NCBI GenBank assembly: GCA_001821055.1
Contig: MHRT01000005.1
Location: 156,378-220,377 of the forward strand
DNA from: Candidatus Taylorbacteria bacterium RIFCSPHIGHO2_12_FULL_45_16
GTDB taxonomy: Bacteria; Patescibacteriota; Minisyncoccia; Phycocordibacterales; PALSA-1337
Direction of reading: 5' to 3'
DNA length: 64,000 bases
Positions 42,765-60,181 of this stretch are shown here, piece by piece (the first letter of the stretch is position 1; every line of letters begins with the position of its first letter). Under the pieces are notes generated by a model. The model ran no database searches. It was not told where the DNA came from and saw nothing but the letters and a program-made list of their open reading frames with translations. A program made the position numbers and the translations under genes.

Positions 42765-42857
42765 GTAATTATTGGGCTAATGGTTAAATGCACGGATAAT
42801 TATATTATGTGATAAAAAAATGTCAAAATTTTGTAACATTACATGAGTCAAATTACT

Positions 42858-43028
42858 GGTAGCCCTACGGGGAATCGCCCGCGCCTCTCGCCTCGCCAGC
42901 TCGGCTCGGGCTGGGCACCGGCTCGCGGCCTCGCGTGCTCGCTCGACATCGCTCCGCCGTTCGATCCCCCAGTCGCAGGCACTCAAAGTGCCTGCTCGGT
43001 TTCTACTAATATTACCTACTTAAGTAAC
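42858..43028. repeat. Direct repeat DR-A (171 bp), beginning with the tRNA-Glu 3'-terminal 19-mer gtagccctacggggaatcg
   Basis: Matches 49179-49350 with about 2 substitutions and 1 indel. Contains the hairpin gcaggcactcaaagtgcctgc. Confidence 0.85.
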
Positions 43029-43036
43029 GTCACCGA

Positions 43037-43083
43037 GTAGGCAAATTGTAACATTCGCGCGAACTTTTTACGAGCAAAATTGA
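43037..43083. repeat. Inverted repeat IR-L (47 bp), partner at 49089-49135
   Basis: gtaggcaaattgtaacattcgcgcgaactttttacgagcaaaattga is the reverse complement of 49089-49135 with 1 mismatch. Confidence 0.85.
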
Positions 43084-43088
43084 AGTAC

Positions 43089-44126
43089 CGCCGCCCACAA
43101 TTTCACTGGGGGCGTGCGAGGGCGGCGGGACTACTGCCTCGGCGCTGAAAACTCGGGGGACTGGGGGCGAGTTTTCAGCGCCGTCCGCTTTTTTGGGGGC
43201 GGGGATGGTTTTAAATTTAAAATTAAAGCGCATACCATTGCTGATATGCGCTTTCCTTAGTCCACGTGACCGTGACCGAGTCTAGCAAAGCACGCTGAAC
43301 AGAACTCTAGCGCACTCGAATTAAAGAACAATGAAATTTTGGAGGGGGTTTTACCTCCCTCCCAGTACTCCACAGCAGACAAGAATGCGTTAGCGAGCTT
43401 GCACTCTACGCCACCGGAAAATGGTAACAATAAAAATTCTTAGACGAGCCCCTGTTTTATCAAGGGCTCGTCCCGTAGACTGCCGCAGTGCACTTGAGTC
43501 TAGCCAAGCAAACTACAGGACGCTTCGGCATGAACTGGTATGCAATACGACCAAATCTAACTGGAAATTTTTGCACGAGTGATTTTTAGGCCACTCGTGC
43601 TCCTTAGAGTGGCGTAGCCGAGTATACTGAAGGAAACCAGACTGCAGCGGACCTCAGAACGCGGGGCCAAACCGGAAAGAGTAACCGACCATACCCGAAG
43701 ATATGGTCGGTTCCGTAGACTGCCGCAGCAAACATTTGGCGCACTGCACGCAACGGCAGCGAAGCCCAGGCTGCGTCACTATCAAAATCATCTAAAAATA
43801 GATTAACATAGATATTATAAAAAGTAAAGCGTATACCATTTCTGATATACGCTTTCATTAGTGAACTGCACGACAGCACAGCCTACGATAGTAAGGCACA
43901 GCATAGTCGAGCGAACCACAAAATGACTACGAAATTATAGCTATAGCCAACTGGACCGAACCAAGATTACTAAACCCGAGAAATTTTTAGTAGGAGTGAT
44001 TTTTAGGCCACCCCTACTCCGTACTGAACCCTACTGCAGGAAGCGCTACGATGGAGAACTGCTCCAAGCGTCACAACTGCGTAGTGTCAGAAATTGTAGC
44101 CGACCCCACCCGAAGATGGGATCGGC
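43089..44126. repeat. ORF-free block of at least 10 stem-loops at ~83-165-nt spacing, in families sharing the loop and inner stem while the outer stem varies with compensatory changes
   Basis: H3 43225-43254 aaagcgcata-ccattgctg-atatgcgcttt pairs with H8 43826-43855 aaagcgtata-ccatttctg-atatacgcttt (c/g changed to t/a on both arms). H6 cacgagtg-atttttaggc-cactcgtg pairs with H9 gtaggagtg-atttttaggc-cacccctac. H7 ccgaccat-acccgaagat-atggtcgg pairs with H10 gccgacccc-acccgaagat-gggatcggc. Most hairpins are followed by CC-R-TA-N (ccgtagactgccgcag twice). Confidence 0.7.
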
Positions 44127-44200
44127 CCGTACTTTGCAGGAGGATACTGGAGCGAACGCGAGCTCAGCTAACTGAAGCATGCACCAGTGTACCCTGTAAA

Positions 44201-46018
44201 CTACTTTCCCTTTAACAGCTCCTCTGCTTGGGAAATGCACTCGTCAAATGTACGATCGTTGACGTATGCCTTTTCAAGCCATTTGGGAAGTGAAGCGTGG
44301 ACGAATCGCCGGAACTGTTGAGACATGAATATTGTCACTCCAAGGTCTTTGGTTGAACGAATGTTCCGACCGCGAACCTGAAGTGCCTGTATCATAACCC
44401 GCCAATTCCACAATGCCCAGCGACTACCACCGAATCGTTCCTCCTCAAACTGAGTGCCCGGATCGCTTGGATTCGGATACCCTGGACGCAGGAAGAAGAT
44501 GACTGGAGCAATCTGTTTGGGCAGATCGACCCCTTCGGCATAGTTTGAAGCTGTGCCGCAGAGGACATCGCCTTCACCATCACGGAAACGAACTGCCGCC
44601 TCCTTGGCGGTCACACCGTTCCCATAACTGATAGCTTTGAGGCCTTCCTCTTCCGCCATCATCATGAACTTATCGCGCTCGAGATTCGAGATGGTGACGA
44701 AGAGACTACGAATCCCTTTGTCTGCCAATCGCTTCGAGGCGCGAGCGACCATGCGAATACTTTTCGGAAGATCACGATTACTGCGTTCGTTCACTGCCAA
44801 GTTGGCTGTGTTCGTCGGCATGAAGAGCCGAGCATTGTCAGATGGAAAGTTGGATTCCAGACTGAATACCGGATTCCGTATCCCCGTCTCGTGCCCGAAT
44901 ACCTCCGGATCACCGATCGTAGCCGAGAGCGCCACCGTCGTCTTGCCCATGATCTTTTGGATAATTGGCGCGACGTAGTAACACTTGACCACCAGTCGAT
45001 ACTGCACATGCTCCTTTTCACCCTTTTCCTCCTTGTAATAGGCGTAGGTGTAGTTGAGCGCGTGGCGATTCTGATCAGGAAGTGAATACTCGAATGAGCG
45101 CAGGTAGCGGCGAAGGTCTTTCACCACAACCTCAAGCTTCTTCAGAGTCTCTCGCTTCTCCACGACATCAATGACTTTTTCCTGCACGGCCTTTTCAAGC
45201 TTGCGCAGGAGTCCTGATTGGTCGATGACCTCGAGTTTCTCCATGAGCGCACCAACCTCGCGTGCATTGAGCACGGTTTTCTGATGCGCCGGTTTCGACT
45301 TGATGATGTAGATCAACTTCTTGTAGAAGTCGTGAAGCAATTCTGCCTCCTCGGCGCCAATCTCTCGCAGAAGCTCCACCGACTTGCGCAAATGCCAATC
45401 GGTTATTTCATACGAGAGCGCGTTCCTGACCACTTCGGCCATGCGGTGTGCTTCGTCAATGACGAGCACTTCCGGCTGTTCCCATTCCCGGCTGAAAAGC
45501 TGGGTGAAGAGATAGAAAGCCATAGTGGAAAGAACAATGCCACCCTGTTTAGCCTCGAACTTCTGCTTCAAGTACGGACAAGGGATCGCTCCCTCGACAA
45601 AAGTCTTGCCTGTTGCTTGGTCCACTCTATGCGGGCAGTCTTTGAGCAGTGAGCATGGGATTTCATCCGCCATCGGCTGTTTGTCTGCCGGCAGTGTGTC
45701 CTTGAAGTAGTGACATTGATGCTCATTGCGCCCGAGAGCGACCTTGAGATCAGGAAACTCTTGGCGGATCTGCTCCATCAGAGTCTTGTTCGTTGTGATG
45801 AGGAAGAGCGGTTGTTTCCGCTTCAAATCCGCGGCCTTGAGTACGGTATACTCTACGGCAGTCTTGCCGCTTCCTGTGGGAGATTCGATCGTGACCGAGC
45901 CATTCTCGGAGATGATACGAAACATTTCCCGCTGACTTGCCCACGGTGCTCTGCGGAGAGCGTTTGTGGGGAATGTCTCTTCTAGCAGAGACAATTTTAG
46001 ATGTTCCAGATGTTGCAT
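44201..46018 (-). CDS. DinG/XPD(Rad3)-family Fe-S cluster DNA helicase
   Basis: Walker A ESPTGSGKTAVEY; four Cys between motifs I and II (HQCHYF, IPCSLLKDCPHR, IPCPYL); DEAH box VLVIDEAHRM; C-terminal helicase motifs (VLCGTASNYAEGVDLP…VIFFLRPGYP). The track ORF extends to 46087; the likely start is MQHLEHL at 46018. GC-rich codon usage. Confidence 0.7.
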   Translation of the reverse strand: MQHLEHLKLSLLEETFPTNALRRAPWASQREMFRIISENGSVTIESPTGSGKTAVEYTVLKAADLKRKQPLFLITTNKTLMEQIRQEFPDLKVALGRNEHQCHYFKDTLPADKQPMADEIPCSLLKDCPHRVDQATGKTFVEGAIPCPYLKQKFEAKQGGIVLSTMAFYLFTQLFSREWEQPEVLVIDEAHRMAEVVRNALSYEITDWHLRKSVELLREIGAEEAELLHDFYKKLIYIIKSKPAHQKTVLNAREVGALMEKLEVIDQSGLLRKLEKAVQEKVIDVVEKRETLKKLEVVVKDLRRYLRSFEYSLPDQNRHALNYTYAYYKEEKGEKEHVQYRLVVKCYYVAPIIQKIMGKTTVALSATIGDPEVFGHETGIRNPVFSLESNFPSDNARLFMPTNTANLAVNERSNRDLPKSIRMVARASKRLADKGIRSLFVTISNLERDKFMMMAEEEGLKAISYGNGVTAKEAAVRFRDGEGDVLCGTASNYAEGVDLPKQIAPVIFFLRPGYPNPSDPGTQFEEERFGGSRWALWNWRVMIQALQVRGRNIRSTKDLGVTIFMSQQFRRFVHASLPKWLEKAYVNDRTFDECISQAEELLKGK

Positions 46019-46032
46019 GTTTCCTTTCTTCT

Positions 46033-46377
46033 CTACTTTTTGTTGTCGATCCAAGCAACGAGCTTGAACCTGCCGATTCCTTCCCACTTGTCCGACCGAC
46101 CAAGCACGTTAGGTGCTCCTGTAGGAATAGTCGTGTTTTCCATGAGCTCGTATAGACGCCCGTGGAATATTGTTCTGAGTCCCGCTTTCACGGTCTCATT
46201 CGGCCTTCCCATAATCGGCAGATAGCGGAATGTTTTGTCCTGCGGATCATATTCGTTCTTTCGTTCAGGTATTAGATGAGCATATTTGTTCACACTCGTA
46301 TGATGTCCGCGTCTTGGTCTGTGATCCGACTTACGACGGAATCGTGGACCATAATGTGGATAGACTTTTTTACCCAT
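46033..46377 (-). CDS. Hypothetical basic protein (island cargo)
   Basis: 114-aa ORF with the SD-like AGGAGAA 9 nt upstream; Arg/His-rich N-terminus. No family recognised. Confidence 0.35.
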   Translation of the reverse strand: MGKKVYPHYGPRFRRKSDHRPRRGHHTSVNKYAHLIPERKNEYDPQDKTFRYLPIMGRPNETVKAGLRTIFHGRLYELMENTTIPTGAPNVLGRSDKWEGIGRFKLVAWIDNKK

Positions 46378-46666
46378 GAGAATATCCGTTCTCCTAAATT
46401 GTATTTGTTGTCAAAAAATCAAGCTTACTCGGCCTGATTCTGGCTTAGCTGTTAAGGGCTTTTCCATTTTTGATGCTAACATACAATAAGTAATCCGTCA
46501 ACTTGCGTAAAGGACCGTGTTCTGTTACGCTGTAATTACAAATGGCTTCGGCCTCGCCCCGCTCACGCGGGGAGGAAGAAATGAGCGATTATTCTATCAA
46601 ACGAATGATCGCTTGTTTTATTTTCTGAAACTGTTCCGAGTCAATGGTGGTGATTTTTTCCTGTAA

Positions 46667-46978
46667 TCACTTGGAGTCTACCAATCGAATTTGAGATAGA
46701 ATGATTTTTCGCGCTACCTTATCACCTAGATTAATATCCGCATAGTATTTTCCTTTTTTATTTTTTGTAGTAAGTGGCACAGATAAAAATACTTCTTTAT
46801 TGAAACCCTTGATGATTAGTACTGGGCGCGCAAAATCAAATCCTTTGCCATCCTGCTCAAATCCAACATTTTCTCCGAGAGAACACCACCAGATTTCTCG
46901 CTCATGATAAAATCGCCGCTCCTTTTCATTATGGATATTTTGCTTGAGTGTATGCCATTTTTGAAAATCTTTTTTCAT
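46667..46978 (-). CDS. MazF/PemK/Kid-like toxin-fold protein (mRNA interferase family); no adjacent antitoxin ORF found
   Basis: …REIWWCSLGENVGFEQDGKGFDFARPVLIIKG…FLSVPLTTKNKKGKYYADINLGDKVARKIILSQIRLVD matches MazF-like logic (RGDI…G.EQ.G.RP.LVL…P.T…….V…QIR.ID). 103 aa. Confidence 0.5.
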   Translation of the reverse strand: MKKDFQKWHTLKQNIHNEKERRFYHEREIWWCSLGENVGFEQDGKGFDFARPVLIIKGFNKEVFLSVPLTTKNKKGKYYADINLGDKVARKIILSQIRLVDSK

Positions 46979-47002
46979 CGTAGGATTTTAACATAAAAAA
47001 AT

Positions 47003-48030
47003 GGCAGGCACTCATTGAGAATGCCCGCCCCATAGAATAGGACTAGTCTGGATTAGTGCAGCCAACTCCGCGCAACTTCACGGCACTGTAGACTGAAATT
47101 TCAGACAAGGAACAAGATGGATAAATCTCGGCGGGGAATTTTCATTCCCCGCCCCGTAGACTGGTGAAGCGTGGTTTAGTACAGGCCAACAAGGAGAACA
47201 GAACTACACCTTACCGGATCAAATCACATGTTGAAACCATGACTCCTTCTGTAAAAAGTAAACGGTAGGAGAAAGTTGATGCTCTCTCCTACCCCTTGCG
47301 CAACCGCACCGCTCCCTAGAGTAGCCCACGGGAGGGCAGCTAACTCCAACAAACGATGGTGGAAATGTAAATTCTGCCGTGGAGTTTTACCTCCACGGCC
47401 CATACTCGAGTGCACAGCAGAGAGGAAAGACGCGCTAAGGCGAACTCCGGGCTGGTTTACACTAGAGAAAAGTTTGGCGGGAGTTTTACCTCCCAGCCCC
47501 ATACTTAGGCACGCGACCACTTCAGGCCACAGTGGGCTAGGCCAGGTCACACCACCCTAAATTTGTTTTAGTCTGAATTTAATATAACATACAAAGCTAA
47601 ATTATGCAAATTTAAAGCGCATACCATTGCTGATATGCGCTTTCCATAGAAGACCGATGTGAAGCTTGGCGCACCTCACTGAAGACAGCGGCACGCGACC
47701 AAGGGACACTACAACGGACTCGAAAAGAACAATTATGAAATTATGTCGCGGAGATATTTCACTCCGCGACCAATACTAAACGGCAGTGTAGTCTAGCCCA
47801 CTGCGGCTAACCGAGCTACACCGAGGTGTGCGCGAGACTGCCACAAAGAACAAACTGGAAAGTGAAAGAATGGCGGGGAATTTTCATTCCCCGCCCCGTA
47901 ACACAGATAACTAGAGTTGCAGAAAAGTCCACCACAGTCCGGGGAACAAAACCGCACCTTACGCGACCCTACGTTACGCAAAAAATCTGAAAATTATAGG
48001 CGGAGGTCAATCTTGCGATCAACCTCCGCC
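47003..48030. repeat. ORF-free block of degenerate ~100-138-bp tandem units (three intervals of exactly 127), each carrying one stem-loop
   Basis: Hairpin starts at 47003, 47130, 47264, 47376, 47476, 47614, 47745, 47872, 47999. ggcggggaat-tttc-attccccgcc is identical at 47130 and 47872. gccgtggag-ttttac-ctccacggc and ggcgggag-ttttac-ctcccagcc share loop and inner stem. aaagcgcata…tatgcgcttt at 47614 is a third copy of the array-1 H3 family. Units starting at 47130 and 47872 also share caccttacYg about 80 nt in. Confidence 0.7.
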
Positions 48031-48146
48031 CCACAGAGAAGCCCGGGACAGTTTAGTTCAGTATGCCCTAGTGAGCGACACGCGAGCTAAGACCAGATCA
48101 CCGAACTGCAAACCCTATTGACTCTGAAGGACGCGCGGACGGAAGG

Positions 48147-48839
48147 TCAGCTGGTCACGACTTCCGCGAGCCGATTGGCACCATTGCCCGACACCGGTGC
48201 TGACGCTTCGGTTTCCTCGGACTCTTCGGGTCTCGTGCCTTGCTTGTCCGATTCTTCCATCGTCACTTCCCATTTCTTGACCGCGAAACGGCCGAAGGGA
48301 CCGCCCTTGTTCGGACGGAAGTCACCGATGCCCGCTTTGGAGCCGGCGGTGTCCACAAGCTGGCGAATCAGAGTGTCTTTCGCTTGCTTGCCATCAACTT
48401 GGAAGGTCACATCGAGCGACCAATCCTTGAACTTCGGGCGGACGATGCAGACGGCGATGTCCATGCAGGTACCGCGACGCATGTCGGGTTCCCACGCAAT
48501 TTCGCCCTTGGCGTTGTTGTCCGCGAACGGCAGAAACTCTTCCTCAATGGAGAGGAACGAGTAGAGCAAGGTGCCCTCAGCAGTCGAAACCGCCTTCTTA
48601 CCGTCGAATTTGTGGAACCGACCAGCGGCTTTGATGGCCGCGAGCAGATTCAGTGTGGGAATGCCCATCGGCCCGGTGCTGTCGTTCTGGCGGTAGATCT
48701 TCGTAACAGCTTCCTGTTTTGGCGACAGATCTTTGGCCTTGGGCGCATGGACTTTGGTACGGAGACCTTCCAAGGTCGCCGGAGTCATGCGATTGATAAG
48801 GAGTGGGCTAATGCCCACGAGTAGTGCGCGTATTTTCAT
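48147..48839 (-). CDS. Hypothetical protein (island cargo), acidic C-terminal tail
   Basis: About 230-aa ORF; the likely start is MKIRALLVGISPLL at 48839, and the track ORF begins at 48884. GC-rich. No family recognised. Confidence 0.4.
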   Translation of the reverse strand: MKIRALLVGISPLLINRMTPATLEGLRTKVHAPKAKDLSPKQEAVTKIYRQNDSTGPMGIPTLNLLAAIKAAGRFHKFDGKKAVSTAEGTLLYSFLSIEEEFLPFADNNAKGEIAWEPDMRRGTCMDIAVCIVRPKFKDWSLDVTFQVDGKQAKDTLIRQLVDTAGSKAGIGDFRPNKGGPFGRFAVKKWEVTMEESDKQGTRPEESEETEASAPVSGNGANRLAEVVTS

Positions 48840-49088
48840 AACCTTACTTTCCGACTTTAGAGCAGAATCAATGATCCTGCTCAAGACGTTATTACCTTTG
48901 TTTTATGCTGTCAAAGAAAAGGCTTTGTTAAGCCCTATAAATAGGTCCACCCTAATTACAAAAAAAGGTTAGCACATTGATTTATTTGTGTCAATAGCAT
49001 GCTTGACAACTTTACTATTCTATTTGTATATATAAATACATATAAAGTACACTATTCACGGTCTAATGCGTGTCGGTACAGCGGGACA

Positions 49089-49135
49089 TCAATTTTGCTC
49101 GTAAAAAGTTCGCGTGAATGTTACAATTTGCCTAC
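49089..49135. repeat. Inverted repeat IR-R (partner of 43037-43083)
   Basis: tcaattttgctcgtaaaaagttcgcgtgaatgttacaatttgcctac. Confidence 0.85.
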
Positions 49136-49178
49136 CAACAAAAATGGCCTTCGCATTCGCTTAGGCTCATTTTTGTAT

Positions 49179-49350
49179 TGGTAGCCCTACGGGGAATCGC
49201 CCGCGCCTCTCGCCTCGCCAGCTCGGCTCGGGCTGGGCACCGGCTCGCGGCCTCGCGTGCTCGCTCGGCATCGCTCCGCCGTTCGATTCCCCAGTCGCAG
49301 GCACTCAAAGTGCCTGCTCGGTTTCTACTAATATTACCTACTTAAGTAAC
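49179..49350. repeat. Direct repeat DR-B (172 bp), immediately adjacent to tRNA-Glu
   Basis: See DR-A. Separated from the tRNA 3' end by only 10 nt (aacatctctc, 49351-49360). Confidence 0.85.
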
Positions 49351-49360
49351 ATCTCTCTCG

Positions 49361-49432
49361 TAGCCCTACGGGGAATCGAACCCCGATTACTGCCTTGAGA
49401 AGGCAATGTCCTAACCGTTAGACGATAGGGCC
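49361..49432 (-). tRNA. tRNA-Glu (anticodon CUC)
   Basis: Minus-strand read GGCCCTA-TC-GTCT-AACGGTTA-GGAC-A-TTGCC-TTCTCAA-GGCAG-TAAT-CGGGG-TTCGATT-CCCCG-TAGGGCT-A: cloverleaf with G1.U72, 7-nt T-loop TTCGATT, anticodon loop TTCTCAA. CCA not encoded. Confidence 0.8.
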
Positions 49433-50944: not shown

Positions 50945-51594
50945 TGTTTTAGTGATTTTATATCCCCAATCTTTTCACTTATTTTTTTAACAGATAAATT
51001 ATTAACCAACGATTCCATTTGAAAAATCGCTATTTTATTTAACTTCTGAAGCCGTATATTTTGTGAAATTTTCTGTGGAATAATGTGTTTCCTGATTGCA
51101 TCAGTATGAATTTTATAATTCACCTTGGCAAGTAGACGTTTCAAATCCCAACCAGTAGCTATTTTCTCGTTTTCTTCAATTTTTAGGCGTTGAAACTCTT
51201 TGATCAGATATAGTTCAAACTCGGGACTAATCCAGGAAGCAAATTCAAAAGCAATGTCCATATGGCCATAAGTTCCACCATATCGACCAGATTTTGAAAT
51301 AAGCCCGATTGCGGAGGTTTCATTTATCCATCTTTTTGGTGTTAAAGAAAAACTATTTAATCCCGCCTTATTTTTAAACCCATCGAATTCGATGGAATTA
51401 AAGGTTGGATTATGAATTCGTTCCCACAGACCAAGAAACTCTATTGTACTCCTTGTACGGATCCAGTTTTGCAAAATATAGTCAGTTTTTTCATTGTCTT
51501 TATAGCGAGCAATATCAGACAAAGAAATAAAGTCGCCTGCCAAATGAGACGTAAAGCCAATCGAGATATCCTGTACGACTATTTTTTTTATCAT
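50941..51594 (-). CDS. KilA-N domain-containing protein (phage/mobile-element-associated DNA-binding fold) embedded in the dcw cluster
   Basis: …RYGGTYGHMDIAFEFASWISPEFELYLIKEF… matches the KilA-N core (GTWVHPDLAIEFARWLSPEF). 217 aa with a C-terminal coiled-coil. Confidence 0.55.
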   Translation of the reverse strand: MIKKIVVQDISIGFTSHLAGDFISLSDIARYKDNEKTDYILQNWIRTRSTIEFLGLWERIHNPTFNSIEFDGFKNKAGLNSFSLTPKRWINETSAIGLISKSGRYGGTYGHMDIAFEFASWISPEFELYLIKEFQRLKIEENEKIATGWDLKRLLAKVNYKIHTDAIRKHIIPQKISQNIRLQKLNKIAIFQMESLVNNLSVKKISEKIGDIKSLKQ

Positions 51595-51642
51595 ATTGAA
51601 TAGAACCCATTATAAGCGGATTTTGAGAAAAAGGAAAATGAA

Positions 51643-55722: not shown

Positions 55723-57165
55723 CTACTCAACATACTCTGCCCCTTTTTCATACAACACTAATTTTGTTTGTCTCAAATTGTTCAGAATAGACATCATAAA
55801 TTTCCACGAAGCCATTATCTCATCGGTTGAGGCAAAGAGTGCTTGGTCGCCGATGAAAGCATCGTGAATGAGTCTCTCGTAATCATTGGAAATGATATCA
55901 AAAGACGCGACATCGGCGTATTTGAATTTCAGTGTCTTTGATTCGGTTATATAATCATAACCCGGAACTTTGACGAAAAATCTAATACGAATCCCTTCTT
56001 CCGGTTGAATCCGAAAAGTCAAAATGTTTTGTTTGTTTTCCGCGTCACCCACTCCTGTCTCTTGTCTGTCGTTTCTTTCTCCTTTTTTGAAATACACATC
56101 TATCTCCACCTTTGATTCCGACATCGCTTTTCCGCTTTCCAGGTAAAACGGCACATCTTTCCAACGCGAAGAATTGATGAGTGCCTGGATACGAAAATAT
56201 GTCTCCGTTTGGGATTGCGCCGAAATGCCACTCTCCTGCATGTAGCCCATGTATTGGCCTCTCACCACGCGCCCACGGATCGAACGGCCGGTCATCAGCT
56301 TCAATTTCTCTAATATCTTTGCGCGTTCACAGCGGATATCTTTGGCTTTGAATGAATCCGGCGCTTCCATGGCAACTATAGCCAACATCATTAACATGTG
56401 ATTTTGTCCGACATCCTTGAGCGCACCGATCGGATTGTAGAATGCCCCGCGACCGTCCATCCCAGACTTCTCAAAGAGTTTAATGTGCACTTTATCTATA
56501 AAATGCCTATTCCAAAGAGGCTCAAACATGGAATTCGAGAAACGAAACGCCATAATATTCTGCAGAACTTCTTTGGCCAAATAATGATCAATGCGAAATA
56601 TCTGTTCTTCTTTGAAGAGCGTCCCTAGAAGCTTGTCAAGGCATCTGGCCGTGTCACTGTCGCTGCCAAAAGGTTTTTCTATCAAAACGCGCGTCCAGCC
56701 GCTGCCATCACCGCAAGATTGGGCCAATCCGGAACGCGCGATATTGCTCAGAATTTTTTCATACAGAGTCGGTGGAACGGATAAATGATATAGTTTGTTG
56801 GAGCACTGACCCCAGCGATCATCTATATTCTTCATCTTTGAAGCAAGACGAATATACGCACCGGCATCATCAAACATACCCTGTTCATAGGACATGTGGT
56901 CAAGAAAATGTTTGATGTCTTCTTCCTTGAATTGACCGAGCCTGACATTCATCCGGCTACGGATGAACTCGCGAAATTCTTCTCTGTTAAACATGCGGCG
57001 AGAAAAGCCGAGAATGGCGAAACGGGACGGCAAAAGCTTCTTCGTATATAAATTCAGCAGTGCCGGGATAAGTTTGCGTGACGCCAAATCACCGGTAATG
57101 CCAAAAATAACAAATATCGTTGGATTCAAAGCGAATAGTGCAACAGGTCGATCTGGTTGTGTCAT
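55723..57165 (-). CDS. zwf: Glucose-6-phosphate 1-dehydrogenase
   Basis: GITGDLASRKLIPAL (NADP site) and RIDHYLAKE (the G6PD signature with G replaced by A). 480 aa. Confidence 0.85.
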   Translation of the reverse strand: MTQPDRPVALFALNPTIFVIFGITGDLASRKLIPALLNLYTKKLLPSRFAILGFSRRMFNREEFREFIRSRMNVRLGQFKEEDIKHFLDHMSYEQGMFDDAGAYIRLASKMKNIDDRWGQCSNKLYHLSVPPTLYEKILSNIARSGLAQSCGDGSGWTRVLIEKPFGSDSDTARCLDKLLGTLFKEEQIFRIDHYLAKEVLQNIMAFRFSNSMFEPLWNRHFIDKVHIKLFEKSGMDGRGAFYNPIGALKDVGQNHMLMMLAIVAMEAPDSFKAKDIRCERAKILEKLKLMTGRSIRGRVVRGQYMGYMQESGISAQSQTETYFRIQALINSSRWKDVPFYLESGKAMSESKVEIDVYFKKGERNDRQETGVGDAENKQNILTFRIQPEEGIRIRFFVKVPGYDYITESKTLKFKYADVASFDIISNDYERLIHDAFIGDQALFASTDEIMASWKFMMSILNNLRQTKLVLYEKGAEYVE

Positions 57166-57205
57166 GTAGCAAGTTTACAGTGAAAGGCATGTTCCCGCAA
57201 TTTCA

Positions 57206-57421
57206 CTAAAAGTCTTCTCCCCATTCAACCCATTTTGGATATAAGTTGCCTGCCACAAACACGCAAGGCAAGATGACGATGCCGGCAAGCACCCAGAATA
57301 TGAAATGCAGTGCCATCGGAATGAAGCCAAAAAAAACCGATGCCATTTCTTTACAAATTTCCCAGATTACCGAAAATAATCCGCTAAATGTTTCTCCCAT
57401 AGAGAAAATATGGTAGCGCAC
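57206..57421 (-). CDS. Hypothetical small membrane protein
   Basis: 71-aa ORF with two TM helices. Confidence 0.3.
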   Translation of the reverse strand: MRYHIFSMGETFSGLFSVIWEICKEMASVFFGFIPMALHFIFWVLAGIVILPCVFVAGNLYPKWVEWGEDF

Positions 57422-57429
57422 AAATCACG

Positions 57430-59089
57430 TCTGCGCAAGTTTGTGCATTCTAGTTGACCATCTACGAACCCATTTTAGCAAGTAATCTGTCCTTGGAAAG
57501 GGTTGATAACCCTATCCCCACACCTATCCCCACGGCGGGGACACCCTGCGGTGTCGTGCCGTCCTGTGTTCACAATGGTTTTGTCGTGGTTTGGCTGCCT
57601 CGCAGCATCCCCGACTTCGGTCGGTTTTATGGCTCGCACGGCGCTGTTGTCGTGGTCGCTCCAGCCTACCCGGTCGGAAGCCGTCCCACGGCGCTAGCCA
57701 AGTCCGTGACTTCGTTCGGTTTTATTGCTGACGCACCCAAGACTGATGTTCCCACGGTCTGCTGTATCGTTAAAGGGCGCGATGCTATTTAGGCGAGTGG
57801 GACGAATCTAGGAAATCAGAAAGCAGGATGCTGTAGGAGAGCGATGGTCCACTTCTTGACGTTTCCAGCAAAGTTCGGACTTCACCTCTGTGGGCGGTTA
57901 ACCGCGGTGGAACTCATGTGGTTTGGCAATGAGCGCATGCTTTGATCCACAAAACGCGCGCACTGAACCTAACGTCGAGAATAGGCTACCAATAAATGGA
58001 GAGCCGAAGCGGCAAAGCCACGGCTCTCGTTAAGGCGCCCCCATTTAGCAGAAGAAAGGCAACCTTGCGCTTATCATAGCATATAGTGTGCCAGTTGCAA
58101 CTATTGCCTTTGCGGAAGGTGCCCCGCATGAATCAGGCTCGTCCTACCAAGTCGTCAACCGGGTTGCCGCCAGTCTTGCTGACAAGTCCCTGCAACATCA
58201 ACCCCATAACATCGGAGTATCCAATGACAGCCAATTATGACGAATGCAACCATTCATCGTCCTGATTCTGTGTAGCTCCGCACCGGCGCAAACTCCGGAG
58301 ATAGATAAGGAGCTTTCCGATCTGGCGACGAAGCTGGCGACCATCATCAAGGAGAACGGCAAGAAGAAGGTGACGGTTTTGGATTTTACCGACCTGCAAG
58401 GGGGCGCGAGCGAACTCGGCAAATACATTGCCGAGGAATTGACCGTCAACCTGGTGATGGTCAAAAAGGATTTTTCCGTGTTGGACCGCGCGAACCTGCG
58501 GCGCATTCTCGCCGAACACAAGCTCACGGCGACGGGCTTGGACCGAAACCGCTCGGCTTCATCTATGAAGCCCATCGGCATTACGCCGGAACAGGCGCAA
58601 CACCTTCATGGTCTGATTGACGCAGAAATGCACCAAGACGCGTCCACGCTCCAAAGCACGACCGCAAAGCTGAACGACAGCCTTGCGCTCGTTCAGGACA
58701 AACTTAACAAGCTCACGCGCGGGTATCTCGACGAACTGATTGACGAGGAGAGTTACCAAGCCGCCACGAAAGACTTGGTGCTCGAAAAGACCACCTTGAA
58801 GAAGGAAAAAGAACGTGTTCAGAGAACCCGCGCCAGTGCGTGGATCGAACCAGCCAAAAGGGTCATAAACACCTTAGAAATGGCCGGAAAAGCGCAGTCC
58901 GACAGAACTGCGCCGGGGGTTTCCGAAATCGTTCACAAAGTTGGAACGAACCGCCTGATTGCGCGCAAAACCGTTACGTTTGCTTTTGCCGAACCTTACG
59001 ATTTCATCCCGTCGTTATTGGGGAATTTGCACCCTGCCTTGTCCGATAACCCTTCACTTCAAAATGACTCCAACTGGTGGAGTACTACA
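57430..59089. other. Compositionally anomalous high-GC segment (by eye about 55% GC versus about 38-40% for flanks) directly abutting a tRNA cluster
   Basis: Strings such as ccgacttcggtcggttttatggctcgcacggcgctgttgtcgtggtcgctccagcc contain internal approximate repeats (tgtcgtggt … cttcgGtcggttttat, twice). Codons in the 58244 ORF are GC3-rich. Confidence 0.5.
58244..59086 (+). pseudogene. High-GC ORF, probably a remnant or chimera: N-terminal secreted/lipoprotein-like domain plus a C-terminal coiled-coil resembling the tail of a large serine recombinase. Its 3' end runs into tRNA-Val on the opposite strand.
   Basis: KKKVTVLDFTDLQGGASELGKYIAEELTVNLVMVKKDFSVLDRANLRRILAEHKLTATGL resembles a CsgG/FlgO/LpoB-type pattern. 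…LNKLTRGYLDELIDEESYQAATKDLVLEKTTLKKEKERV resembles the L(x)RLYdaYLdG(x)IseEeY coiled-coil of serine recombinases. Confidence 0.3.
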
Positions 59090-59166
59090 TGGTGCACTCT
59101 GCAGGACTCGAACCTGCGACCTCACCCGTGTGAAGGGTACGCTCTAGCCAACTGAGCTAAGAGTGC
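59090..59166 (-). tRNA. tRNA-Val (anticodon CAC), CCA encoded
   Basis: GCACTCT-TA-GCTC-AGTTGGCTA-GAGC-G-TACCC-TTCACAC-GGGTG-AGGTC-GCAGG-TTCGAGT-CCTGC-AGAGTGC-A-CCA; perfect acceptor stem. Confidence 0.8.
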
Positions 59167-59185
59167 GGAAAAATCACATCTCTAG

Positions 59186-59256
59186 TCGGGGTGCCGGGAA
59201 TCGAACCCGGACCTCACACTCCCGAAGCGTGTATACTACCACTATACTACACCCCG
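59186..59256 (-). tRNA. tRNA-Pro (anticodon CGG)
   Basis: CGGGGTG-TA-GTAT-AGTGGTA-GTAT-A-CACGC-TTCGGGA-GTGTG-AGGT-CCGGG-TTCGATT-CCCGG-CACCCCG-A. Confidence 0.75.
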
Positions 59257-59261
59257 ATTTG

Positions 59262-59332
59262 TGGACCTACGGGGAATCGAACCCCGGCTTCGCCCATGCC
59301 ATGGGCGCGTAATACCGCTTTACGATAGGCCC
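59262..59332 (-). tRNA. tRNA-Ala (anticodon GGC) with the G3.U70 identity pair
   Basis: GGGCCTA-TC-GTAA-AGCGGTA-TTAC-G-CGCCC-ATGGCAT-GGGCG-AAGC-CGGGG-TTCGATT-CCCCG-TAGGTCC-A. Confidence 0.75.
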
Positions 59333-59420
59333 AATATATATGCGATTGCGCCATTCACATCTAAAATCTAACATAAATAACACAATTATCAAAAATGCAA
59401 TTGTGATTCTCTCAAAAACA

Positions 59421-59444
59421 AAAACCGCTTATTAAGCGGTTTTT
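59421..59444. terminator. Bidirectional terminator-like hairpin
   Basis: aaaaccgcttattaagcggtttt flanked by A/T runs. Confidence 0.5.
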
Positions 59445-59934
59445 GTTTTATTTTGTACATTCACATGTCTCGCACTTTTTGCCCGAATGAGCTACGTGCC
59501 CGCAAGAGGAACATACCGGTGGTACATCTGCCATAATTTTATAATTGATTAAGGCTGATAAAACGACCTTTGCGAAGTGACATTATAGCACAGAAATTTC
59601 TTTTGGCGTATCTAAACGTGAGTTCGTCGACTATGCCGCTGACAAAGCTGAAGTACGTTGTTAATTAGGTAAACGATATGAAGTCGTTTTTACAATACCT
59701 CTTTTATGATCTTTTATCCTATTATTCAAATCGCCAGATGATCCAACATAGAATGAACCATCCTTTTTGCATTTCAATATGTACACAAAATATGACATAA
59801 ATTTATTGTATTGAATGTCCTGCTACGCTAAGGCTTCGCAGAACACTGCTTCGCTCTAGGTAATAGAAGTTATAGTTGACCTAACACAGTGCTTTGCACT
59901 GCGTAGCTCCTTGTGATCAACAAGGAGCGAAGCA

Positions 59935-59955
59935 GTGGACCCGAGAGGATTCGAA
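59935..59955 (-). repeat. Orphan duplicate of the 3' end of tRNA-Ala(UGC) (T-loop plus acceptor 3' strand), 152 bp from the intact tRNA
   Basis: gtggacccgagaggattcgaa is identical to 60107-60127. A further ttcgaatcctct copy lies at about 60016-60027. Confidence 0.7.
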
Positions 59956-60075
59956 GCTTACAGCTTCGGTACAGGTTTCGCATTTTCTCGAAGCAAAGCT
60001 TCTCGAAAATATGCTCAACCTTTTCGAATCCTCTACGCAAGGTGCAAAAGCACCTTGCTCGAGTCCTCTCAAACC

Positions 60076-60098
60076 AAAAACCGCTCAATGCGGTTTTT
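60076..60098 (-). terminator. Terminator hairpin immediately downstream of tRNA-Ala(UGC)
   Basis: aaaaaccgctcaatgcggttttt. Confidence 0.55.
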
Positions 60099-60106
60099 GT
60101 GTTTTC

Positions 60107-60181
60107 GGTGGACCCGAGAGGATTCGAACCTCCGACCTTTGCTTTGCAAAAGCACTGCTCTACCAACTGAGCTACGGGCCC
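60107..60181 (-). tRNA. tRNA-Ala (anticodon UGC), G3.U70 present, CC of the CCA encoded
   Basis: GGGCCCG-TA-GCTC-AGTTGGTA-GAGC-A-GTGCT-TTTGCAA-AGCAA-AGGTC-GGAGG-TTCGAAT-CCTCT-CGGGTCC-A-CC. Confidence 0.8.

Follow-up and report, generated by a model that had tools for sequence, protein, structure and literature searches.

How a sharply bounded, GC-rich patch came to lie against a cluster of tRNA genes in an AT-rich genome is the question raised by a 64,000-nt stretch of DNA from Candidatus Taylorbacteria bacterium RIFCSPHIGHO2_12_FULL_45_16 (GCA_001821055.1, contig MHRT01000005.1, positions 156,378-220,377 of the forward strand), referred to here as the window. The patch occupies positions 57443-59091 (1649 bp, ~1.65 kb) and is very probably the internally deleted remnant of a horizontally acquired integrative element, likely mobilizable or conjugative, that lies at the 3' end of a tRNA-Val(cac) gene. 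A first-pass annotation of the sequence had proposed a decayed, horizontally acquired fragment with a truncated recombinase, a proposal now supported by the tail of a large serine recombinase (LSR), a fragment of FlgO/CsgG-like cargo, two attachment (att) junctions and related genomes that lack the patch.

The compositional break is steep. In 300-nt windows GC content rises from 0.42-0.46 to 0.56-0.57 between window starts 57250 and 57400, and past 59350 it is down again to 0.37-0.44, much as the first-pass annotation described when it placed a sharp change at about 57430 and a return to AT-rich sequence past the tRNAs. Its start (57430) lies within 13 nt of the mapped junction at 57443, and its end (59089) within 2-3 nt of the other junction, at 59091/59092. 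The patch as a whole is 53.6% GC, the highest value anywhere in the 64 kb, against a mean of 43.4% (sd 2.3%) for segments of the same size outside both GC patches of the window, which places it ~4.4 sd higher. Its one long open reading frame (ORF), for which PGAP made no call, has a GC content at third codon positions (GC3) of 0.76 in its first part and 0.62 in its second, compared with 0.44-0.53 in the genes for G6PD, MraZ and Ddl and in a small membrane ORF; the GC-rich codons had rightly been seen as unlike those of host genes. In both respects the composition is that of a tRNA-linked island.

This ORF (58244-59155, plus strand, 303 aa) remains open through two gene fragments and the junction between them, and its two-part homology is directly visible in the alignments. 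Residues 1-99 match residues 11-105 of FlgO/CsgG-like proteins of ~333 aa (PF17680/PF03783) at 80-85% (overall ~83%) amino acid identity by BLAST, over 92-96 aa in proteins P0054-P0066 and others, as expected of a gene fragment related by descent. Residues 108-291 (extending to 303 in certain alignments) correspond to residues 330-513 (526) of LSR family members of 510-530 aa, with 50-74% identity. Descent is again indicated by 74% identity over 184 aa to residues 330-513 of protein P0002 (E about 1e-96), with 81% nucleotide identity to its locus L051, by 66% amino acid identity to P0004 of locus L050, and by 50-66% identity to many proteins of 510-530 aa that carry PF00239 and PF07508 (plus PF13408). 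The serine-recombinase-like coiled-coil tail that had been noticed at the C-terminus is thus the 184 residues equivalent to LSR residues 330-513.

In P0002 the functional domains are a Resolvase domain (PF00239, residues 8-153), a Recombinase domain (PF07508, 174-261) and a zinc ribbon (PF13408, 276-325). A Pfam scan of the 303-aa product detected none of these three, nor any other domain above threshold; CsgG scored 16.6 bits, below the cut-off of 20.8, and its match was confined to residues 39-111, short of a full domain. The product retains only the coiled-coil and tail region of the LSR, with no catalytic or DNA-binding module, and so none of the marks of a functional LSR. The lipoprotein-like N-terminus of the first-pass annotation is more precisely the secretory signal of a FlgO/CsgG-family protein, in which the canonical lipobox is absent. 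Across the fusion junction the sequence is LTATGLDRNRSASSMKPIGITPEQ. A search of 5.8 billion clustered proteins returned no full-length homologue of the product but itself, and BLAST divides the ORF cleanly into its two parts. Judged from its sequence, the ORF appears to be a chance in-frame fusion pseudogene of two gene fragments. From the host flank to the tRNA gene, the locus is composed of the following parts:

57401-57442, no strand: host flank (B arm), read as the original spacer from the tRNA-Val 3' end to the start of the small membrane ORF; AT-rich and host-like.
57441-57471, plus strand: attL, comprising the crossover core GTGCA (57443-57447) and the P' arm, TTGTGCATTCTAGTTGACCATCTACGAAC; placed by alignment to L050 1673-1929, L045 and L018.
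57472-57785, plus strand: conserved non-coding end region with its core motif at 57513-57655; the 3' half is degenerate, with a partial internal duplication at 57694-57736.
57786-58243, no strand: GC-rich orphan spacer, lacking a long ORF and any homologue.
58244-58540, plus strand: 5' fragment (99 codons) of a gene for a FlgO/CsgG-like secreted protein; 77-82% nucleotide identity to L011, L012, L013, L050 and L053.
58541-58564, plus strand: codons 100-107 (DRNRSASS), the deletion junction, with no match in either parent gene; from the protein alignment and BLAST coordinates.
58565-59089, plus strand: 3' third of the LSR gene, equivalent to residues 330-505 with the coiled-coil and the C-terminal region; it makes up the P arm in attR; from BLAST.
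59090-59096, plus strand: attR crossover core TGGTGCA, the reverse complement of the C72-A73-CCA end of the tRNA; GTGCA is common to attL.
59090-59155, plus strand: codons 283-303, where the ORF reads on into tRNA-Val antisense sequence; not genuine coding sequence.
59090-59166, minus strand: tRNA-Val(cac), the integration target, intact; ARAGORN, and 66.3 bits with the Rfam tRNA model.

Both ends of the patch can be read directly as recombination junctions. Locus L050 encodes a full-length LSR (P0004) that does not adjoin a tRNA and so represents an unintegrated relative, in which the LSR 3' end is followed by TGGTGC, the P' arm, the conserved non-coding motif and a convergent FlgO-like gene. 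Window positions 58568-59108 align to L050 1156-1696, and positions 57436-57695 to L050 1673-1929; the patch ends therefore align to adjoining segments that meet at 1673-1696, with the common core GTGCA. Since they meet at one point of an unintegrated relative, the two ends carry the signature of a recombination in which attP and attB yield attL and attR. The left end (57441-57485) is TTGTGCATTCTAGTTGACCATCTACGAACCCATTTTAGCAAGTAA, which in the frame of the attP-state LSR tails translates to CILVDHLRTHFSK and a stop, and sequence to the left of the TGGTG box is unrelated from locus to locus. On the right, the LSR fragment runs to 59089 and the tRNA-Val gene has its 3' end at the next position, 59090, an integrase gene abutting a tRNA 3' end as in a tRNA-linked island.

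The window attL and attR share GTGCA, the junctions of locus L033 share AGTGGTG, and in both copies of the P arm seen in L011 and L027 the sequence is the same up to TGGTG and diverges only past it. From two loci, the crossover can tentatively be bracketed to G-T-G, the complement of tRNA positions C74, A73 and C72 at the discriminator/CCA boundary, within which the crossover dinucleotide is predicted to lie. Among the five tRNAs of the window tRNA-Val alone has an encoded CCA (the other four lack it), and the tRNA-Val of the relative L019, identical at 45 of the first 47 nt, is also without one, which is consistent with a CCA supplied by the P arm of the element. The predicted empty site is GCGCAAGTTTGTGCACTCTGCAGGACTCGAACC, reads from such a site would contain GCGCAAGTTTGTGCACTCTGCAGG, and the predicted circular junction joining P to P' includes CAACTGGTGGAGTACTACATGGTGCATTCTAGTTGACC.

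The P' arm looks like the 3' end of a tRNA, and a duplicated 3' half of tRNA-Val, in the style of tyrosine integrases, was considered for the left end. It was ruled out because the spacing from TGGTG to TCGAAC is 17-18 nt rather than 13, and because elements inserted at other tRNAs, as well as L050 in its unintegrated state, have the same arm. In LSR attP half-sites the motif for the zinc-ribbon domain lies a few bp further out than in attB half-sites. Two intact-looking relatives have a further arrangement of these sites. In L011 (6300-6450 and 8120-8260) and L027 (6330-6480 and 8200-8300), a full, attP-like P-P' junction stands inverted ~80 nt upstream of a p57-LSR-tRNA module; of the LSR gene this junction includes no more than the final ~100 nt, and the two copies have identical P arms. 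Inverted att-like sites thus bracket the segment of p57 and LSR, which may be an invertible or composite architecture.

Absence of the patch is directly observed in syntenic Parcubacteria loci, which have ~72% nucleotide identity in G6PD and the same UvrA-UvrC-Ddl ... G6PD-MraZ backbone. To the right of the patch, three tRNA genes directly follow one another on the minus strand, tRNA-Val(cac), tRNA-Pro(cgg) (59185-59256) and tRNA-Ala(ggc) (59261-59332), as found by ARAGORN and Rfam, and on the other side of the patch stands the small membrane ORF (57206-57400, minus strand, ATG at 57400), homologous to L019 8041-8208 and L023 6610-6763. The patch is missing from L019, L023 and L024: fewer than 130 nt separate the small membrane ORF from tRNA-Pro(cgg)/tRNA-Ala(ggc) in L019, and in L023 and L024 the small ORF adjoins tRNA-Ala(ggc). 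The tRNA cluster between Ddl and G6PD is itself rearranged among Parcubacteria (window 59090-60181, L019 6816-7914, L023 5697-6456), L019 having an extra tRNA-Pro(ggg), an inverted tRNA-Val(cac) at another place and a DUF378 gene, and L023 two tRNA-Ala genes only. As tRNA content varies between relatives, where tRNA-Val originally stood in the lineage of the window is deduced from the junctions and not observed.

On the G6PD side of the patch, a promoter-like site (TTTCCA-16-TG-TAAAAT, 57472-57499, minus strand) lies within the P' arm and the start of the motif and is directed at the small membrane ORF, whose ATG at 57400 lies ~70 nt downstream of it, and at G6PD. The small-ORF/G6PD operon may have exchanged its native upstream sequence for that of the element; promoter-like matches in the region are no commoner than chance (4 against 2.8 expected). 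A hairpin at 57416-57436 (minus strand), a candidate terminator of the tRNA operon displaced to attL, was not flagged by the terminator scan.

The first-pass annotation had offered a chimeric contig join as its alternative. An assembly artefact, with a Verrucomicrobiota-like fragment misjoined into a Taylorbacteria contig at the tRNA cluster, would account for an abrupt GC change beside tRNAs, which are common chimera points, and one contig, L007, does show a 63-nt discrepancy inside the cluster. The exact 303-aa product nevertheless recurs, each time between G6PD and Ddl, on 23 contigs (the longest 309 kb) from ENA, Logan and JGI-type assemblies of at least eight samples. Eight loci that were retrieved match window 57100-59400 at 100% identity and stay at 99.94-100% over stretches of up to 15.7 kb; the 23 contigs represent one near-clonal population, independently assembled many times. 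By the NCBI and UniRef names of its G6PD and MraZ, this population belongs to Candidatus Taylorbacteria, a Parcubacteria lineage. The same 2.3 kb with both host flanks recurs in contigs of 3.8-177 kb from at least eight samples, and MEGAHIT-type, scaffold-based and Logan assemblies all agree. The left boundary is a specific recombination junction that does not lie in a repeat, a precise join of host flank and P' arm that mirrors the attP of L050. Because the patch was assembled identically in at least eight samples and by different assemblers, it is not a contig chimera, and the probability left to an artefact is close to negligible. In L007 (an ERZ27254743 contig) the missing 63 nt are equivalent to window 59209-59271, and tRNA-Pro(cgg) is fused to tRNA-Ala(ggc) via a 13-nt overlap. 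The gap may be a genuine deletion variant, or else similar tRNA sequences collapsed into one another during assembly.

The open frame invites the further suggestion that the fusion is an expressed, exapted protein, for instance a secreted coiled-coil protein, or a C-terminal piece of recombinase that disturbs newly arriving elements of its own family at tRNA sites. C-terminal LSR fragments beside tRNAs do recur elsewhere (L009, L010, L033 and many short matches), and the frame is uninterrupted through both fragments and the junction. An in-frame junction, however, has a prior of one in three; the zinc-ribbon cysteines and the recombinase domain required for DNA binding are absent; breakpoints in other remnants are scattered over residues 64-388 instead of falling at one position; and among the clustered proteins the product is its own sole full-length match. 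The last 22 codons (59090-59155) are moreover antisense to tRNA-Val, as the first-pass annotation saw when it concluded that at least the end of the ORF is no real coding sequence. This read-through is no peculiarity of the ORF, since full-length LSR relatives also run into antisense tRNA in the same frame. Exaptation is accordingly very unlikely, and a pseudogene remains the preferred reading of the ORF.

Upstream of the ORF, the non-coding part of the patch belongs in good measure to the same element. The ~200-nt end motif was collected by pattern search, and 23 non-redundant copies were aligned. Its core in the window is 88% identical to L012 7266-7123 and 69-74% identical to L011, L009, L014-L018 and L050, and an invariant CCGAC-UUCG-GUCGG hairpin followed by TTTT was flagged as terminator-like. 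In the attP state this hairpin lies ~150 nt downstream of the LSR stop, and in the simplest reading it would be the terminator or 3' region of the LSR gene. Imperfect internal repeats had been reported in 57500-57760, and they are found there: a 27-nt direct repeat (57608-57634 and 57703-57729, 85% identity) and TATCCCCAC, present twice around 57513-57534. Both repeats fall in the element's conserved non-coding end motif, and the duplication at 57694-57736 is a partial copy of the UUCG hairpin.

A GC-rich structured RNA gene at 57443-58243 would also explain a region that has no ORF, contains UUCG-capped hairpins and is conserved over 23 loci, and GC-rich structured RNAs are often seen in AT-rich genomes. 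Against it, Rfam at E<=1 finds only tRNAs in window 57430-59089, L009, L011 and L012; the covariation term of RNAalifold is 0.07 kcal/mol, with double changes in only 4 of 33 pairs; and fold z-scores, at -0.87 for the end motif and 0.24 for 57786-58243, fall short of significance. The motif always abuts the P' arm, and is therefore part of the element end, which makes an RNA gene highly improbable. The same Rfam search, which gave tRNAs only, disposes of a hidden rRNA fragment behind the GC patch. Neither blastn nor tblastx matched the spacer at 57786-58243 to any of the fetched loci. This spacer was also compared with the genes that precede the FlgO-like gene in relatives (p250, p293, p246) as a possible decayed copy, a candidate rejected for want of any similarity or of a DNA match at any locus.

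What the intact element looked like can be gauged from its relatives. In L011, L012, L027 and L050, the FlgO-like gene occurs within a few kb of an LSR gene, the end motif, a TrwB/TraG/DUF87-type ATPase and a DnaG-type primase, an association that marks the FlgO-like gene as cargo of the element and not a host gene. On the same gene content, the intact form is a small integrative element, probably mobilizable. The window copy has no transfer or replication gene of an integrative and conjugative element (ICE) or an integrative and mobilizable element (IME); the intact relatives L011, L012 and L027 carry the ATPase and the primase, and neither a relaxase nor VirB4 was seen in the stretches of the relatives examined.

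Similar elements were found in neither phage nor plasmid collections, no viral contig has a close LSR relative, and the end motif has no match in IMG/VR viral contigs. It has 23 matches in metagenome contigs and five in GTDB contigs sampled at one genome per species, all five in metagenome-assembled genomes (MAGs) of Verrucomicrobiota (Limisphaerales, subdivision 3). Motif-bearing loci are 50-59% GC, like the patch; because the element type has this composition and the host is ~43% GC, the patch is taken as a recent, unameliorated acquisition across phyla. As the closest relatives lack taxonomy, the donor phylum rests on motif copies of ~70% identity in the five Verrucomicrobiota MAGs together with GC content, which point to a Verrucomicrobiota-type source. 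The more specific scenario, in which a Limisphaerales-like Verrucomicrobiota element entered a Taylorbacteria cell, expressed its LSR there and integrated at tRNA-Val by its own attP x attB reaction, is conceivable and rather doubtful. L050 (JGI 3300045396) and the closest patch-free Parcubacteria loci, L023, L025 and L026 (JGI 3300045330, 3300045333 and 3300045394) come from the same JGI metagenome series; carriers of the element and this lineage of the candidate phyla radiation (CPR) therefore co-occur in at least one environment.

The history proposed for the patch would begin with a circular, LSR-bearing element whose attP, overlapping the last codons of the LSR gene, recombined with an attB at the 3' end of tRNA-Val(cac). 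A crossover at the discriminator/CCA boundary of the tRNA would have produced attL (host flank, P' arm and end motif, at 57441) and attR (LSR tail and intact tRNA, at 59090). Later deletions would have removed most of the element, one of them joining codon 99 of the FlgO/CsgG-like gene, in frame by chance, to LSR codon ~330 to create the 303-codon ORF. With every catalytic and DNA-binding domain of the recombinase gone, the remnant would be inert. We infer both this order of events and the lack of function.

Recognisable attL (P' arm) and attR (P arm) sites in direct orientation might still define a non-autonomous mini-element that a cognate LSR and a directionality factor, supplied in trans, could excise. 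The window, however, encodes no LSR gene or other protein of the element, attL has TTG where TGG is expected, and the patch is fixed in 23 of 23 contigs, with no empty-site allele among them. Continued mobility is hence improbable, and an immobile remnant is the favoured interpretation.

Several observations weigh against the reading of the patch as a deleted integrative element of this type. Its attL reads TTGTG and not TGGTG, which is taken as the flank of a native CCA-less tRNA and could be a later mutation. The FlgO-like fragment of the window is oriented as the motif, unlike in L050 and L012, which calls for a composite ancestor like L011 or for one or more rearrangements. The 458 nt at 57786-58243 are without a homologue and unexplained. 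The closest relatives (L012, L045, L050 and L051) are metagenome contigs without taxonomy, and the near-clonality of all 23 contigs (99.94-100% identity) permits no selection test on the ORF.

Beyond the window, the LSR relatives form a family whose attP appears to overlap the stop region of its own gene and whose attB would be the 3' terminus of a tRNA gene. At least 27 of 53 proteins have tails ending in ..WC...D(L/S)NL.., encoded by antisense-tRNA codons, and a second class of eight ends in ..WC(I/S)L(V/L)(D/N)H(L/I)RTHFSKK.., encoded by the P' arm; the left end of the patch encodes a tail of the second class. The LSR 3' end overlaps tRNA-Leu(gag) in L009 and L033/L049, tRNA-Met in L011, tRNA-Val(gac) in L027 and tRNA-Leu(tag) in L051. 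The N-terminal half of the full-length relatives is weakly similar in sequence to the structures of SPbeta YokA/SprA (9dxd, 9dxh). Wrecks like that of the window also occur: L009 has an inverted motif, LSR 302-end and tRNA-Leu, L010 has ATPase', p250' and LSR ~314-end, and L033/L049 have primase', LSR 339-end and tRNA-Leu. The scattered breakpoints fit random deletion that cannot extend into an essential tRNA. A deletion hot-spot at residue ~330 was ruled out by this spread, in which many breakpoints are contig-end or start-codon artefacts.

SSV1 has its attP within a tyrosine integrase gene and inserts into a tRNA gene, and integration cuts the integrase gene into two large halves. The LSR family shares an attP within the integrase gene and a tRNA gene as target. 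An SSV1-like split of the window LSR gene was ruled out, because integration here exchanges only the last few codons; truncation at residue 330 would be a secondary deletion. The full-length relatives resemble the integrases of phiC31, Bxb1 and A118 (LI integrase) and SprA of SPbeta in having Resolvase, Recombinase and zinc-ribbon domains and a C-terminal coiled-coil. Unlike these phage LSRs, they have no phage genes alongside, no matches in phage, plasmid or IMG/VR collections and a tRNA end as attB, and the window fragment is without any catalytic or DNA-binding domain.

The closest documented mechanistic precedent is provided by streptococcal ICEs with a single serine integrase targeting rumA, in which, with the repeats located at the 3' end of the integrase gene, insertion makes integrase and target trade their 3' ends (PMC4701971, Ambroset et al., 2016). 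Both systems place the att site in the 3' end of a serine integrase gene and have very short flanking repeats. As in the 3'-end swap of the rumA ICEs, the last codons of the family LSR switch from a P'-arm-encoded form (..WCILVDHLRTHFSK) to an antisense-tRNA-encoded one (..WCTLQDSNL). The systems differ in target, which here is the 3' terminus of a tRNA (Val, Met, Leu) and not a protein gene; the sequence families are unrelated as far as tested, and the window holds only a remnant.

tRNA 3' ends are classic targets of tyrosine integrases, for example in the actinomycete ICEs (AICEs) pSAM2 and SLP1 (PMC2440964). Like AICEs and the islands catalogued by Islander and TIGER, the element family combines insertion at a tRNA 3' end, an integrase gene beside the tRNA, an intact tRNA and a small replication and transfer module (primase, FtsK/TraG-like ATPase), and as in these systems decay leaves an integrase fragment by the tRNA. 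In contrast to AICEs, an LSR replaces the tyrosine recombinase, only ~5-7 bp are shared instead of a long direct repeat of the tRNA 3' end, and the P' arm is tRNA-like with the wider spacing between TGGTG and TCGAAC (17-18 nt, not 13). Literature searches found no description of serine integrases targeting tRNA ends, nor any in Patescibacteria, which is absence of evidence only.

Two further loci in the window stand out. The first high-GC patch (42854-49353) is a separate island of ~6.3 kb with 178-nt direct repeats (42854-43031 and 49176-49353, 98% identity) and, just inside them, 55-nt inverted repeats (43037-43091 and 49081-49135, 95%). It adjoins tRNA-Glu(ctc) (49360-49432), and its minus strand has genes for a DinG/XPD-like helicase (44201-46087) and a MazF/PemK toxin (46667-46978). 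Membership of the same element family was ruled out for this patch (43-49 kb), since it has no proteins in common with the LSR element. At ~50945-51600 (L001 2698-3351), between the genes for a penicillin-binding protein and MurE in the division and cell-wall cluster, lies a KilA-N domain gene; L019 and L023 have a methyltransferase gene where the window population has it, and it is likely another insertion.

Genomic islands and horizontal transfer in Patescibacteria have already been documented (PMC12455944), and to these the patch adds an example and not a principle. For the window itself the meaning is small: the patch appears ordinary and non-functional, and annotators should flag it as a pseudogene or island remnant. 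It is of interest as a junction-resolved foreign element in a streamlined CPR genome, deleted down to 1.65 kb. The novelty is modest, and lies in the reconstruction of the junctions, the likely Verrucomicrobiota-type origin of the element in a CPR genome and the tRNA-end-specific LSR family. If the donor assignment is true, Verrucomicrobiota would be a DNA-exchange partner, and direct DNA traffic between a CPR lineage and a verrucomicrobial partner would offer a clue to the unknown host of these episymbionts. The LSR family, in turn, would be an undescribed integrase class that reads the discriminator/CCA end of tRNAs and re-targets among Val, Met and Leu tRNAs. Serine integrases need no host factors, and such a tRNA-end-specific family could therefore serve as an integration tool.

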